A stretch of DNA of 55,066 nucleotides from Candidatus Omnitrophota bacterium (GTDB taxonomy: Bacteria; Omnitrophota; Omnitrophia; Omnitrophales; Aquincolibacteriaceae). Below are positions 17,440-33,548 of the stretch, one piece after another. How positions within the stretch are numbered: the first letter of the stretch is position 1; every line of letters begins with the position of its first letter. The stretch covers positions 1 through 55,066 of the forward strand of contig JAHFHG010000009.1 of NCBI GenBank assembly GCA_023247035.1. The letters are read 5' to 3'. The notes beneath the pieces are model-generated. The model saw nothing but the letters and a program-made list of their open reading frames with translations, was not told the origin of the DNA and did not search any database. The translations under genes and the position numbers were made by a program.

Positions 17440-17473
17440 CCTCTCCGCAATGCCTTTGCGGATTCCGTTTTTT
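17440..17473 (+). terminator. Putative intrinsic terminator after the EamA pair
   Basis: TCCGCAA-tgcct-TTGCGGA hairpin followed shortly by a T-run. Confidence 0.4.
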
Positions 17474-17476
17474 GGC

Positions 17477-17506
17477 TTTACAGTTTTCAGGGGATTATGG
17501 GATAAT
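17477..17506 (+). promoter_or_regulatory. Putative promoter of the bactofilin-HTH operon
   Basis: TTTACA-18 bp-(TGg)GATAAT; GGAGG SD upstream of ATG 17538. Confidence 0.5.
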
Positions 17507-17537
17507 CCACCGCTATCCACAACCCAAAGGAGGCTCC

Positions 17538-18071
17538 ATGGTTAAGAAAAGGGAAGAGACGGAAGAAAAAATACTCGACGTCGACGCGAGTATGCAGGGA
17601 ACCATTGCTTTCAAGGACCCCGTGAATCTCAGAATCAATGGAAGCTTTGAAGGGAAACTGGATACCCGCGGGAATCTGACCATCGGGGAAAATGCGAAGG
17701 TAAAGGCCGGCATTCACGGCGACCGGATTGTGATTGCCGGAAAGGTTACGGGAGATGTCCAGGCCGTCCTGTCCCTTTCCATCGTTGCTCCGGCTGTTGT
17801 GCGGGGTAATATCACCACACCGCGCTTGGTCGTCGGTGAAGGCGCCGTCATCGAAGGGCAAATTACAATGTTCGGCGGCCGCCAGAGCGGGGAAGGCCTG
17901 GACGTTGAAATGACCCTGAAAGATGTGGCTCAGTACCTTGAGGTGGAAGCCAAAGTTGTGGAAGAGTGGGCCCACCAGAAAAAAATCCCGTCACGGTCCG
18001 AAAACGGCGATTGGATTTTTTCCCGGGCTGCGATCGACCGCTGGATCCAGGAAGAAAACGCGCGAGCCTGA
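17538..18071 (+). CDS. Bactofilin (polymer-forming cytoskeletal) domain fused to a C-terminal excisionase/HTH_17-type domain
   Basis: Beta-helix repeats (LRINGSFEGKL...LTIGENAKVKAGI...IVIAGKVTGDV...VVRGNITTPRLVVGEGAVIEGQITM) followed by MTLKDVAQYL...KIPS...WIFSRAAIDRWI. Confidence 0.88.
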   Translation: MVKKREETEEKILDVDASMQGTIAFKDPVNLRINGSFEGKLDTRGNLTIGENAKVKAGIHGDRIVIAGKVTGDVQAVLSLSIVAPAVVRGNITTPRLVVGEGAVIEGQITMFGGRQSGEGLDVEMTLKDVAQYLEVEAKVVEEWAHQKKIPSRSENGDWIFSRAAIDRWIQEENARA

Positions 18072-18076
18072 CAGAC

Positions 18077-18184
18077 ATCAATCAAAAATCAAACGGCTCG
18101 GCCTGCCCCCGGGCGCGGAACGGGAATATTCATTCAGCATACTTTGCACGCATTTTGATTTTTGTGATTTGATCTTTGGACTTT
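18077..18184. repeat. Intergenic inverted A-rich/T-rich palindromic element
   Basis: CAAAAATCAAA (18083-18093) is the exact reverse complement of TTTGATTTTTG (18154-18164), with degenerate flanking repeats. Confidence 0.5.
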
Positions 18185-18185
18185 T

Positions 18186-18470
18186 ATGAATAATCTGTTG
18201 ACTCTTGAAGAGGTAAAAAATTTTCTCGCCGTTGACCAAGAGCGCGTTGAAAAATTTTTAGAACAGGGAAAACTGCACGCCTACAAAATAGGCGGCACCT
18301 ATATCCGTTTCCGTAAAGAAGAGATACTCACCCTCCACTCAGAACTCCTTCCCAAGCCGAAAGGCAAACCCTTTCTTGCCCGCGTGGGCGACTTCTGGCG
18401 GTTTAACAATTTTTATATTGTTTCCCTCCTCATCCTTATTGCCATCGTAGCCCTCACCATGAGGAATTAG
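18186..18470 (+). CDS. Excisionase/HTH_17-type domain protein with C-terminal transmembrane helix
   Basis: LLTLEEVKNFL...GKLHAYKIGGTYIRFRKEEI followed by FYIVSLLILIAIVALTM. Confidence 0.82.
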   Translation: MNNLLTLEEVKNFLAVDQERVEKFLEQGKLHAYKIGGTYIRFRKEEILTLHSELLPKPKGKPFLARVGDFWRFNNFYIVSLLILIAIVALTMRN

Positions 18471-18483
18471 CGGTCTTTCTCGA

Positions 18484-18900
18484 ATGGAAATCCGCCAGGG
18501 GATCGACATGACAAGCGTGCGGCGGATTCAAAAAGCGATCCAGCGCCGCGGCCGGTTTTTTTTGAATCGGGTTTTTACACTTTCCGAACAGGCTTATTGC
18601 GGATCCAAGCGTATGAAATACGAGCATTATGCGGCCCGGTTTGCAGCCAAAGAGGCCGCGATTAAAGCCTTTAAGATAAAAAAATGCGTCGGGCTCGCGG
18701 GGTTCGCTGGGCTCGCTGGGCTCGCTGGGCTCGCCATGCGGGACATTGAAATCCGCCGCAAGCCCACCGGCCGGCCTTTCATTTACCTTGCGCAAAAAGT
18801 GCGGAAACGTTTCCAGATTCCCGGCAATTGCCGGATTGAGCTCTCGATGACGCATGAGCGGGAATATGCGATCGCAACCGTTTTGCTGGTCCTGCCTTGA
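18484..18900 (+). CDS. acpS: Holo-[acyl-carrier-protein] synthase
   Basis: GIDM, FTLSEQAYC, AARFAAKEA, GRP, LSMTHEREYA. Confidence 0.92.
   Translation: MEIRQGIDMTSVRRIQKAIQRRGRFFLNRVFTLSEQAYCGSKRMKYEHYAARFAAKEAAIKAFKIKKCVGLAGFAGLAGLAGLAMRDIEIRRKPTGRPFIYLAQKVRKRFQIPGNCRIELSMTHEREYAIATVLLVLP
18691..18735 (+). repeat. In-frame 9-bp tandem repeat (5 copies) in acpS
   Basis: GGGCTCGCG GGGTTCGCT GGGCTCGCT GGGCTCGCT GGGCTCGCC encodes GLA GFA GLA GLA GLA. Confidence 0.85.
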
Positions 18901-25052: not shown

Positions 25053-25125
25053 GGGCCGGTAGTTCAGTTGGGAGAACGCTACAATGGCATTGTAGAGGTC
25101 AGGGGTTCAACTCCCCTCCGGTCCA
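25053..25125 (+). tRNA. tRNA-Ala(GGC)
   Basis: Acceptor GGGCCGG/CCGGTCC with G3:U70, anticodon arm CTACA-ATGGCAT-TGTAG, T-arm AGGGG-TTCAACT-CCCCT; complete CCA not encoded. Confidence 0.95.
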
Positions 25126-25268
25126 CCGATTTATGAATTGAGAGGGGAGTTGAAGGGAGCGTGCGGTTTCAAACGTGACTTAACGTCACGTTTGAGCGGG
25201 CGGGTGGCCGACCCGTAATGAGTGAAGCGAATGAAGGGCGCCAACTCCCCTCCGGTCCACCGATTTAT
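25108..25268 (+). repeat. tRNA-3'-end-duplicating palindromic element, copy 1 (134-bp period)
   Basis: 27-bp direct repeat CAACTCCCCTCCGGTCCACCGATTTAT at 25108 and 25242. Internal GAGGGGAGTTGAA (anti-T-arm) and TCAAACGTGAC-ttaac-GTCACGTTTGA hairpin. Confidence 0.85.
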
Positions 25269-26061: not shown

Positions 26062-26147
26062 GCAGGAGTGGCGGAACTGGCAGACGCGCCGGACTCAAAA
26101 TCCGGTGGTGCTCAAACACTGTGAGGGTTCGACTCCCTCCTCCTGCA
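26062..26147 (+). tRNA. tRNA-Leu(CAA)
   Basis: Acceptor GCAGGAG/CTCCTGC, anticodon arm CCGGA-CTCAAAA-TCCGG, long variable arm, GAGGG-TTCGACT-CCCTC. Confidence 0.95.
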
Positions 26148-33234: not shown

Positions 33235-33303
33235 ACCTCCCACTTTAAACTGTTCTTTGAATTTGTGAGGAATATCTCTCACAGAATCGTAATTCAATCG
33301 CCA

Positions 33304-33499
33304 TCAGGCGCGTGCGCATTCAAAAGTGCGCTGCTTAATTAGGGAAGAGAGATTCGTAAGCCGCGGAATTTTGCGGGACGGATGCTCCACGGTGCCGCCG
33401 CTGTAGGCAAGAACGAAAACGAATAGACCACTGTTCCGCGAGGAATGGGAAGGTTCGTGAGTAGGATTAAGTTCGCTTGCCAGTCAGAAGACCTGCCTT
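33304..33499 (+). ncRNA. Cobalamin (AdoCbl) riboswitch
   Basis: AGGGAA (33341), GCCGCCGCTGTA (33394), CCACTG (33428), GGGAAGG (33447), B12 box AGTCAGAAGACCTGCC (33482-33497); upstream of btuB. Confidence 0.92.
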
Positions 33500-33548
33500 T
33501 TGGATTGTTCTTCGAGCAAAGAGAGCCTAATCTGGGTGTCGTCACTTT

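Follow-up and report, generated by a model that had tools for sequence, protein, structure and literature searches.

A bactofilin–winged-helix fusion and a tail-anchored winged-helix protein are encoded as a conserved gene pair across Omnitrophota

Results

Two adjacent genes encode related helix-turn-helix domains

We analyzed a stretch of DNA of 55,066 nucleotides from a Candidatus Omnitrophota bacterium (contig JAHFHG010000009.1 of assembly GCA_023247035.1), here called the window. The initial annotation had described two genes within positions 17538 to 18470, a bactofilin with a C-terminal helix-turn-helix (HTH) domain of the HTH_17 class and a protein combining the same class of HTH with a C-terminal transmembrane (TM) helix. 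Both reading frames lie within these limits on the forward strand. A Pfam scan placed the two domains of gene 1 above their cut-offs and recovered HTH_17 in gene 2, which also has a hydrophobic window near its C-terminus, and the helices that had been singled out as acidic, EAKVVEEW and DQERVEKF, are present in the translations. The features of the locus are:

17444..17462, + strand: terminator-like hairpin followed by a T run (consensus scan)
17477..17506, + strand: sigma-70-like promoter candidate, TTTACA-18-TG-GATAAT, 31 nt upstream of gene 1
17528..17533, + strand: Shine-Dalgarno sequence AGGAGG, 4 nt before the ATG of gene 1 (read from the sequence)
17538..18071, + strand: gene 1, bactofilin-winged HTH (wHTH) fusion of 177 aa (open reading frame, Pfam, AlphaFold2)
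17571..17864, + strand: bactofilin beta-helix core of gene 1, residues 12-109 (Pfam, profile search, Foldseek)
17868..17906, + strand: low-confidence linker of gene 1, residues 111-123 (pLDDT <50 at residues 114-120)
17910..18053, + strand: acidic wHTH (HTH_17) of gene 1, residues 125-172 (Pfam, AlphaFold2, family alignment, Foldseek)
18072..18185, + strand: intergenic spacer of 114 nt between gene 1 and gene 2, free of terminator-like sites in the consensus scan
18186..18470, + strand: gene 2, tail-anchored wHTH protein of 94 aa (open reading frame, Pfam, AlphaFold2)
18195..18329, + strand: wHTH of gene 2 (residues 4-48), a homologue of the gene 1 wHTH (Pfam, hhalign)
18384..18419, + strand: juxtamembrane motif of gene 2, GDFWRFNNFYIV, residues 67-78 (family alignment identity)
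18408..18461, + strand: C-terminal TM helix of gene 2, about residues 75-92, with 2 residues beyond the helix (AlphaFold2 and hydropathy)

The hairpin may close the EamA transporter unit upstream of gene 1, an indication that is weak on its own, with 3 such sites found in the scan against 2.2 expected in shuffled sequences. The promoter candidate, with 10 of 12 matches, is a consensus match only (1 found, 0.8 expected by chance). A strong Shine-Dalgarno-like motif precedes the start of gene 1 in all 11 relatives inspected.

Gene 1 joins a bactofilin core to an acidic winged helix

Gene 1 carries the only Bactofilin (PF04519) match found in a genome-wide search of this genome, covering residues 12-109 (E 3e-22, 79.2 bits, cut-off 27.9). 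The AlphaFold2 model has a mean pLDDT of 86.6, rising to 93-97 in the core, and Foldseek aligned it with BacA (2n3d) at a TM-score of 0.83 (target-normalised) and an rmsd of 2.1 Å over 102 columns. The family profile likewise matched the solved structures of BacA (2n3d, E 2.8e-11) and of a Thermus bactofilin (6ria, E 1.5e-9). The modelled core has a right-handed beta-helix fold, and from family membership and fold we infer that gene 1 would polymerise through it.

The beta-helical core is the same as in canonical bactofilins (Caulobacter BacA, 2n3d; Thermus thermophilus, 6ria/6rib; PF04519), but a folded C-terminal wHTH stands where these proteins have a disordered tail, an obligate membrane partner is encoded next door, and the N-terminal part contains a conserved, family-specific segment of its own, LDVDASMQG..FKDPVNLRING. 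An N-terminal membrane-targeting peptide is typical of most bactofilins without strictly defining them. No BacA-type peptide of this kind was found in gene 1 across 68 family members; position 2 is Ala in 49 of the 68 and a large hydrophobic residue in 3, and the available text on BacA names F2 and K4/K7 as critical for membrane binding (PMC12448750). The linker between core and wHTH is bimodal in length in the family (5 residues in 21 members, 13-16 in 40). One relative of the core carries a PilZ domain instead of the HTH, and the C-terminal module is thus exchangeable.

The HTH_17 (PF12728) match of gene 1 spans residues 125-172 (E 2.3e-10, 41 bits, cut-off 27). The AlphaFold2 models show an alpha1-alpha2-beta-beta-alpha3 fold in both HTHs, with Foldseek matches to BldC, Xis, RdfS and RacA. 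We compared the family with the DNA-contact residues of BldC (Lys26, Thr27, Thr29, Arg30, Lys33, His46, Arg47 and Arg48). Arg30 of BldC contacts a base, and RacA uses the equivalent arginine, according to the available text of PMC5859096; in gene 1 this position is acidic (Glu or Asp) in 60 of the 68 members. The position of Thr29 is Glu in 43/68, that of the wing residue His46 is Trp in 64/68, and the family alignment contains no basic wing. The domain carries a negative net charge in 60 of the 68 members (median -2). At six positions, 80% or more of the members have an acidic residue, and the conserved residues E135, E137, E143 and E155 occupy positions that face the DNA in BldC. Having lost the DNA-contact residues of BldC, the gene 1 HTH does not appear to be built like a DNA reader and looks unable to act as one.

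Gene 2 combines a basic-winged HTH with a C-terminal membrane anchor

The gene 2 match to HTH_17 covers residues 4-48 (E 2.1e-7, 31.5 bits, cut-off 27), and its AlphaFold2 model (mean pLDDT 85.2) has one helix over residues 63-93. All 68 members have a hydrophobic 17-residue window (Kyte-Doolittle value of 1.6 or higher) 0-7 residues from the C-terminus. The most conserved part of the protein is the juxtamembrane motif, with a mean pairwise identity of 63% versus 44% for the HTH; F70 and Y77 are invariant, and D69, N74 and F76 are each present in at least 90% of members.

Of the BldC residues compared, just two have retained counterparts in gene 2: the wing Arg48 position is Arg in 68/68 members, and the Arg50 position is Arg or Lys in 63/68. 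Positions 34, 41, 43, 44 and 51 are basic in at least 80% of members (position 41 is Arg in all 68), and in 58 of the 68 the spacer is positively charged (net +2 to +5). Such an invariant wing arginine and such basic residues would also be expected of a DNA binder, a point against the scaffold proposed below. In the recognition helix, Glu or Asp stands at the Thr27 position in 47/68 and at the Thr29 position in 35/68, and the Arg30 position is Lys or Arg in 32/68 and acidic in 24/68. The best solved relatives are BldC (6amk, E 6.5e-5) and Xis of phage Pukovnik (4j2n, E 1.7e-4; Foldseek TM-score 0.79, target-normalised). Given the invariant wing arginine and the basic spacer, a link to DNA would be possible through gene 2 only.

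The two HTHs are paralogues: aligned with hhalign, their families matched with a probability of 97.5% and an E-value of 4.9e-12, at 26% identity over 50 columns. In a mirror-tree analysis of all 68 pairs, the correlation was 0.72 between the two HTHs and 0.52-0.64 between the halves of the gene 1 core and the gene 2 HTH, with a partial correlation of 0.51 between the HTHs given the core. This suggestive signal was not robust among 29 distant sequences, where the HTH-HTH correlation was 0.42 versus 0.57 for the core comparison. Winged helices of the BldC, Xis and RdfS type oligomerise head to tail, according to the available text of PMC5859096, and the hydrophobic residues of such a contact are compatible here (L134, V136 and W144 in gene 1; L4 or M, Y33, I35, G36 and G37 in gene 2). 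The BldC salt bridge Arg22-Glu16' is incompatible, as it would pair Glu with Glu. The conserved hydrophobic 'head' residues of gene 1, L134, V136 and W144, may simply belong to the core of the fold.

The gene pair is conserved throughout Omnitrophota

We asked how widely the two genes occur. Of 401 Omnitrophota genomes, 364 contain gene 1 and 378 contain gene 2; the two occur together in 361, gene 2 alone in 17, gene 1 alone in 3 and neither in 20. The three genomes with gene 1 only gave weak matches (E 8e-6 to 6e-21), and the identity of gene 1 across the phylum is 45-77%. In 49 of 49 loci from relatives, 29 of them chosen via gene 1 and 20 via gene 2 in other families, the genes are adjacent on the same strand with gene 1 first. 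The same adjacency was seen in 20/20 further loci, which are not independent because they were picked on having both genes on one contig. Across 67 loci the gap between the genes has a median of 42 nt (range -22 to 237); some lineages have 0-30 nt, and a 22-nt overlap occurs in three loci. A sporadic fusion unlinked to the HTH-TM gene would have refuted the initial annotation, and neither is the case. Both genes recur at full length in about 90% of the 401 genomes and lie next to each other in every locus examined, far beyond chance, which makes the pair a strongly conserved core module of Omnitrophota.

In the window, the pair is surrounded by genes for EamA transporters, AcpS, YdjC and SurE, and in other lineages by TsaD, MgtC and LarB. 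Since this wider neighborhood varies between lineages, only the pair itself is constant, and the neighboring genes in the window and in the relatives' loci examined gave no functional clue.

At least two lineages have gene 2 but no gene 1. Five near-complete genomes in which no bactofilin match was found still carry gene 2 at the same locus, in the order TsaD-MgtC-gene 2-LarB. As gene 2 survives where gene 1 has been lost, anchoring gene 1 cannot be its sole job, and it must have a further role or client.

The 150 best representatives at 50% identity included about 25 full-length fusions, none of which had a gene 2-like extension. Few of the matches carry a name, and those names are Candidatus Omnitrophica or Omnitrophota, 'PVC group bacterium' and, in one case, a 'Verrucomicrobiae' MAG. 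Our literature search found no published work on a bactofilin-HTH fusion that has an HTH-TM protein as its own partner, and the pair is apparently unstudied.

Comparison with known cytoskeletal and DNA-binding systems

RodZ is a bitopic membrane protein whose cytoplasmic HTH binds the MreB cytoskeletal filament, and to our knowledge this HTH does not bind DNA. RodZ and MreB thus resemble the pair in combining a membrane-anchored HTH protein with a filament. RodZ has an Xre-type HTH_25 domain and a periplasmic RodZ_C domain, whereas gene 2 has HTH_17, no HTH_25 match in the Pfam scan and only 2 residues past the TM helix. Canonical RodZ, with both domains in one reading frame of 274-320 aa, is present in four of five Omnitrophota genomes checked, so gene 2 is not a replacement for RodZ. 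A weak HTH_25 match in the genome of the window was not accepted as RodZ; by eye it seems to combine an XRE-type HTH with a C-terminal half that is cupin-like.

A second comparison, and a precedent for a bactofilin coupled to an HTH protein at the membrane, is offered by BacR (YhbD) of B. subtilis, whose gene shares an operon with bactofilins. The accessible part of the report describes BacE and BacF as binding BacR, recruiting it to the membrane and weakening its binding to DNA (PMC13649987). As described there, BacR is a separate soluble DUF4004 protein with neither a bactofilin fusion nor a membrane anchor, unlike gene 1 and gene 2, and the membrane contact is made by the bactofilins, whereas here it would be made by the HTH-TM protein. 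The initial annotation knew of no characterised example of such a system. These two cases soften that statement, which within our literature search holds for a fused bactofilin-HTH with an HTH-TM partner.

The small alpha-alpha-beta-beta-alpha fold of BldC, Xis and RdfS gave the best sequence and structure matches of both HTHs. These are free DNA-binding proteins, whose BldC-type contact residues are missing from gene 1 and reduced to two wing positions in gene 2. Membership of several named families was rejected: the two HTHs scored 17.8 and 23.8 bits against the BldC family (NF033787, cut-off 77) and 21.8 and 27.7 bits against excisionase (TIGR01764, cut-off 28.8), and MamR matches were far below the NCBIfam cut-off. 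Against the MADS1 anti-phage HTH (NF047737), the scores were 41.9 and 27.7 bits with an equivalog cut-off of 80, and the genes lie in a housekeeping context and not in a defence island.

RacA-DivIVA, RocS and RicO resemble the pair in joining an HTH to a membrane- or pole-targeting element, as far as their available descriptions go. RacA, RocS and RicO bind DNA, and the arginine of RacA equivalent to Arg30 of BldC (PMC5859096, in its available text) is Glu or Asp in gene 1. The available account of RocS gives an amphipathic helix and no TM helix, in contrast to gene 2. The wHTH of RacA is a weak match to the gene 1 HTH (profile E 0.08; Foldseek TM-score 0.60, target-normalised). RacA has a C-terminal coiled coil that binds DivIVA, whereas gene 1 has no coiled coil and ends with the HTH. 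With the weak profile match, the acidic residue at the arginine position and the missing coiled coil, we rejected gene 1 as a RacA.

Discussion

A possible membrane scaffold and its alternatives

We hypothesize that the pair forms a two-protein membrane scaffold. Gene 1 would polymerise through its bactofilin core and present, on a flexible linker, a C-terminal winged helix that may be a former DNA reader turned acidic docking domain. Gene 2 is a tail-anchored inner-membrane protein with its basic-wing winged helix in the cytoplasm on a basic spacer. The paralogous winged helices would bind each other, possibly head to tail like BldC subunits and helped by their opposite charge, and gene 2 would thereby draw the gene 1 filament to the cytoplasmic side of the membrane and keep it there. 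Of the two, gene 2 is the more autonomous, with a further role or client. That gene 2 is a receptor on which the gene 1 filament docks via both winged helices is our tentative preference, with a probability somewhat short of even; the contact between the two HTHs and the recruitment of gene 1 to the membrane are both steps that we infer. The initial annotation had offered two readings, a link between filament, DNA and membrane, and HTHs repurposed to couple proteins and thereby anchor the filament at the membrane. The acidic character of the gene 1 HTH and its lack of a basic wing favor the second, and the part that did not stand is a DNA link via this HTH. How bactofilins reach the membrane and choose their clients is an active question; if docking on gene 2 is correct, membrane attachment has been handed to a dedicated partner by reusing a DNA-binding-type fold as a protein coupler. 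At only 177 and 94 aa, the two proteins should be tractable in E. coli or in vitro.

Alternatively, the gene 2 wHTH could bind the chromosome while its tail sits in the membrane, much as RocS, RicO or RacA-DivIVA tie DNA to the envelope, with gene 1 filaments clustering or positioning these anchors for chromosome organisation or segregation. The closest solved relatives of gene 2, BldC and Pukovnik Xis, are DNA binders that oligomerise on DNA, its wing positions are basic in all or nearly all members (Arg48 and Arg50 equivalents), its spacer is basic, its persistence without gene 1 would fit an autonomous DNA anchor, and bactofilins scaffold ParABS in Myxococcus, as the available text of PMC5703909 reports. 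We still regard this arrangement as unlikely: the positions of the BldC phosphate contacts in the gene 2 recognition helix are mostly acidic, the base-reading position is basic in fewer than half of the members and often acidic, the net charge of the gene 2 HTH is only about +1 (median), and the gene 1 HTH looks unable to bind DNA. In addition, ParB was present in four of five genomes checked, so that a standard segregation system is not missing. If gene 2 does bind DNA, the acidic HTH of gene 1 could instead serve as a decoy or DNA mimic on its DNA face, with the assembly state of the filament setting how much of a membrane-held regulator is free. Such a switch would recall BacE and BacF, which are described as binding BacR near its HTH, lowering its DNA binding and holding it at the membrane (PMC13649987, in the part available), and the four conserved glutamates of gene 1 at DNA-facing positions would suit it. 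A tail-anchored protein, however, needs proteolysis to leave the membrane, and no protease or cleavage motif was linked to the pair; phylum-wide conservation of gene 1 at the identity given above would also be unusual for a simple autoregulator, and we consider a switch of this kind very unlikely. Slightly less likely again is the possibility that the two proteins do not touch and are co-transcribed but have clients of their own, such as a distinct third protein bound by each HTH. It would explain why gene 2 can do without gene 1 in two lineages or more and why the C-terminal module of the bactofilin can be exchanged for PilZ, but not the strict adjacency in 49/49 loci, with stop/start overlap in three and all other neighbors changing, nor the near absence of gene 1 on its own (three weak cases among the 401 genomes).

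No bona fide FtsZ among 401 Omnitrophota genomes

The pair belongs to the core genes of Omnitrophota, a large, uncultured phylum about whose cell biology very little is known. No bona fide FtsZ was found in the 401 Omnitrophota genomes searched, and Omnitrophota have FtsQ, FtsA, MreB and peptidoglycan genes. Because FtsZ is absent from these genomes, a conserved cytoskeletal element is a candidate for explaining how walled bacteria without FtsZ divide. We think it improbable, at the speculative end of what the data suggest, that the near-universal and unusually conserved gene 1 filament and its gene 2 receptor are part of a machinery for FtsZ-independent division or septal wall synthesis, in which gene 2 would act as a hub with another client where the bactofilin has been lost. 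Such a role would be comparable to that of the ring-forming bactofilin of Chlamydia, which also lacks FtsZ.

A conserved bactofilin fusion encoded beside a tail-anchored winged-helix protein

The initial annotation had described a bactofilin with a C-terminal helix-turn-helix (HTH) domain, encoded next to a second HTH protein that ends in a membrane helix. Its coordinates and its description of both genes were right: we recovered both ORFs, with Pfam Bactofilin and HTH_17 domains in the first (gene 1) and an HTH_17 domain and hydrophobic C-terminus in the second (gene 2). A consensus scan found no terminator-like site between the two genes.

Features of the gene 1-gene 2 region (window coordinates)
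17444-17462: terminator-like hairpin 5' of gene 1, consensus match only
17477-17506: promoter-like site 5' of gene 1, consensus match only
17528-17533, + strand: AGGAGG 5' of the gene 1 ATG, read from the sequence
17538-18071, + strand: gene 1, 177 residues, ATG start
Gene 1 residues 12-109: Bactofilin domain, Pfam 79.2 bits (cut-off 27.9)
Gene 1 residues 125-172: HTH_17 domain, Pfam 41 bits (cut-off 27)
18186-18470, + strand: gene 2, 94 residues, hydrophobic C-terminus
Gene 2 residues 4-48: HTH_17 domain, Pfam 31.5 bits

A search with the gene 1 protein gave 2417 matches with E up to 0.001. All 120 of the matches listed contained both Pfam domains (72-100% identity), and the few named ones among them were from Candidatus Omnitrophica; ESM Atlas clusters were labelled Candidatus Omnitrophota. 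Within the phylum, gene 1 is present in 364 of 401 genomes (314 of the 341 high-quality ones) and gene 2 in 378 (328 of 341). The gene 1 matches in these genomes stayed full length even at 45-50% identity. Both genes occur in 361 genomes, gene 2 alone in 17 and neither in 20, half of which (10/20) are less than 85% complete; gene 1 hardly ever occurs without gene 2 (3 genomes, weak matches). In all 49 loci from relatives, 29 of them picked via gene 1 and 20 via gene 2 in other families, gene 1 immediately precedes gene 2 in the same orientation; it also adjoins gene 2 in 20 further loci that were picked knowing that both genes were on one contig. Across 67 loci the median gap is 42 nt (range -22 to 237). 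Gene 1 is broken into two ORFs in one relative (G042, locus L051) and has one in-frame TGA in another (G040:C3:42096-42608), which could reflect decay, recoding or assembly errors. The module is real and conserved, and it is undescribed in the literature searched: no paper on a bactofilin-helix-turn-helix fusion was found in the parts of the bactofilin and helix-turn-helix literature that were accessible, and none on bactofilin in Omnitrophota or bactofilin with excisionase.

Predicted structures

For gene 1, an AlphaFold2 model made from an alignment of 68 family members (mean pLDDT 86.6, pTM 0.58) has a beta-helix at residues 12-110, a linker with pLDDT below 50 at residues 114-120 and a winged helix at residues 124-176; its pTM fits two domains whose mutual orientation is not fixed. 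In target-normalised superpositions the core matched BacA (2n3d) with a TM score of 0.83, and the HTH matched BldC with 0.74-0.78 and RacA with 0.60. In both its domain and its fold gene 1 is a genuine bactofilin, atypical at both ends. In the model of gene 2 (pLDDT 85.2), residues 4-54 form a winged helix and residues 63-93 a single long helix, with a short spacer between them; the top structural matches of gene 2 were Xis of phage Pukovnik, BldC, RdfS and RacA. We classify gene 2 as a tail anchor protein because a strongly hydrophobic 17-residue window lies 0-7 residues from the C-terminus in 68/68 members. Judged by hhalign (probability 97.5%, E 4.9e-12), the HTHs of gene 1 and gene 2 are paralogues. 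A 253-residue bactofilin relative from outside the window (P0149) has the family-specific N-terminal motif and the core of gene 1, with a PilZ domain (PF07238, E 6.7e-10) where the winged helix would be, which suggests that this bactofilin subfamily can exchange its C-terminal module.

DNA-contact residues of the two winged helices

We mapped family columns to BldC by HMMER alignments, with the wing register taken from hhalign, and used the BldC-DNA contacts in the accessible part of PMC5859096 as a map. Gene 1 failed this comparison. The base-reading Arg30 position, which RacA uses too, is Glu or Asp in 60/68 members, Thr29 is Glu in 43/68 and His46 is Trp in 64/68, while basic residues occupy the Lys33 and Arg48 positions in only 14/68 and 30/68. 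The domain has a negative net charge in 60/68 members (median -2), and at six positions at least 80% of them have an acidic residue. Because the contact positions are replaced and the domain is acidic, it is highly improbable, on its residues, that the gene 1 HTH binds DNA as BldC or RacA does.

Gene 2 has kept Arg at the Arg48 position in 68/68 members and Arg or Lys at Arg50 in 63/68; the median net charge of its HTH is +1, and in 58/68 the spacer leading to the membrane has a charge of +2 to +5. These features are what a DNA-membrane tether via gene 2 would use. Glu or Asp stands at the Thr27 position in 47/68 members and only 32/68 have a basic residue at Arg30, and we consider such a tether rather doubtful. 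Both HTHs belong to Pfam HTH_17, and neither reached the curated BldC, excisionase or MADS1 cut-offs.

Membrane contact and proposed mechanism

According to the available text of PMC12448750, BacA binds the membrane through an N-terminal peptide, with F2 and K4/K7 as its critical residues, and most bactofilins have a similar motif. At position 2 of gene 1, 49/68 members have Ala and 3/68 a large hydrophobic residue; Lys/Arg comes next, and acidic residues after it. As gene 1 has no BacA-like N-terminal peptide, its filament would have to reach the membrane in some other way, for which gene 2 is the obvious candidate. The best-conserved part of gene 2 is a juxtamembrane motif (residues 67-78; mean pairwise identity 63%, versus 44% for the HTH), and this conservation suggests that the motif engages in a specific contact at the membrane surface. 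We propose that gene 1 polymerises and that gene 2 keeps the assembly at the membrane, with the acidic winged helix of gene 1, borne on a linker of 5 or 13-16 residues, binding to the basic wing face of the gene 2 winged helix. We hold this mechanism, in which the interaction is inferred, as a tentative reading with somewhat less than an even chance of being right.

Among the closest characterised logic to that of gene 2 and gene 1 is RodZ-MreB. Gene 2 itself is not RodZ: its HTH is of another class, it lacks a periplasmic domain, and canonical RodZ occurs in 4/5 genomes. These four are other Omnitrophota genomes; no RodZ_C match was found in the window's genome (G000, 93% complete). The only HTH_25 match of that genome, a 184-residue protein (G000:C4, locus L097, 1069-1623, - strand), reads by eye as an XRE-type HTH with a cupin-like C-terminal half, probably not RodZ. 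BacR-BacE/F, as presented in the accessible part of PMC13649987, is equally among the closest logic to the pair; a BacR-like decoy switch, set against the membrane-directed docking proposed here, seems quite improbable.

Gene 2 also occurs where there is no bactofilin. Five genomes, 96-100% complete, had no gene 1 match and no PF04519 (Bactofilin) match anywhere, with control genomes responding; gene 2 is kept in all five and therefore has a filament-independent role. In the presence tables, gene 2-only genomes make up 3/3 of one genus (g67) and 7/11 of one family (f24). One bactofilin-free genome has, in this order, TsaD, MgtC, gene 2 and a LarB-like gene, where MgtC and gene 2 are 12 nt apart, and another has the order Polysacc_deac_2, TsaD, gene 2. 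These copies retain the GG-x-x-x-R-F wing and the DF..F.DFY motif. That the two proteins make no direct contact would accord with such copies and sits less easily with the invariable adjacency of the genes; we regard it as very improbable.

FtsZ and cell division

FtsZ_C (PF12327) and Tubulin/FtsZ (PF00091) were each found in 0/5 genomes, with controls responding in 13/14 named genomes. PF00091 matched 2 of the 401 phylum genomes, with proteins scoring 50-54 bits versus an FtsZ equivalog cut-off of 295, and this search found no bona fide FtsZ in G000 and 400 other phylum genomes. In the dcw cluster of G000 (C10, locus L091) the order is murG, murC, murB, ddl, ftsQ, ftsA, and glycine-cleavage genes come next; a one-contig relative has a YggS-like gene and proC after ftsA. 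In both, the cluster ends at ftsA and ftsZ is absent. MreB is present in 5/5 genomes and ParB in 4/5. In their accessible parts, a survey from 2016 did not settle whether Omnitrophica have FtsZ (PMC5147048), a 2025 paper grouped Ca. Omnitrophota with phyla of conserved dcw genes (PMC12283558), and a preprint reported that FtsZ-less Chlamydia have a ring-forming bactofilin that is important for their cell size (10.1101/2020.10.19.346502). The neighbourhoods offered no support for a division role of the pair, and its link to cell division in Omnitrophota without bona fide FtsZ is improbable.

Genomic neighbourhood

Upstream of gene 1, the window encodes a FemAB-like protein and two EamA half-transporters; AcpS, YdjC and SurE lie downstream of gene 2. 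Among 20 loci from other families, TsaD is present in 17 and MgtC in 18, directly upstream of gene 1 in those 18. Most of them (L032-L050) share the order Polysacc_deac_2, TsaD, MgtC, gene 1, gene 2, LarB-like, then FmdE or LarC, then CdhD. The family to which the window belongs has lost this order. Across lineages only the pair is invariant, and its surroundings vary.

The AcpS gene (18484-18900) contains 4.9 in-frame copies of the 9-nt unit GGGCTCGCT (18691-18734), giving a (GLA)n-like stretch in the 4'-phosphopantetheinyl transferase. Elsewhere in the window, tRNA-Ala (GGC) (25053-25127, + strand) and tRNA-Leu (CAA) (26062-26147, + strand) flank a CrcB gene upstream of leuS, and a Cobalamin riboswitch lies at 33293-33514 on the + strand (65.3 bits versus a gathering score of 31.5).
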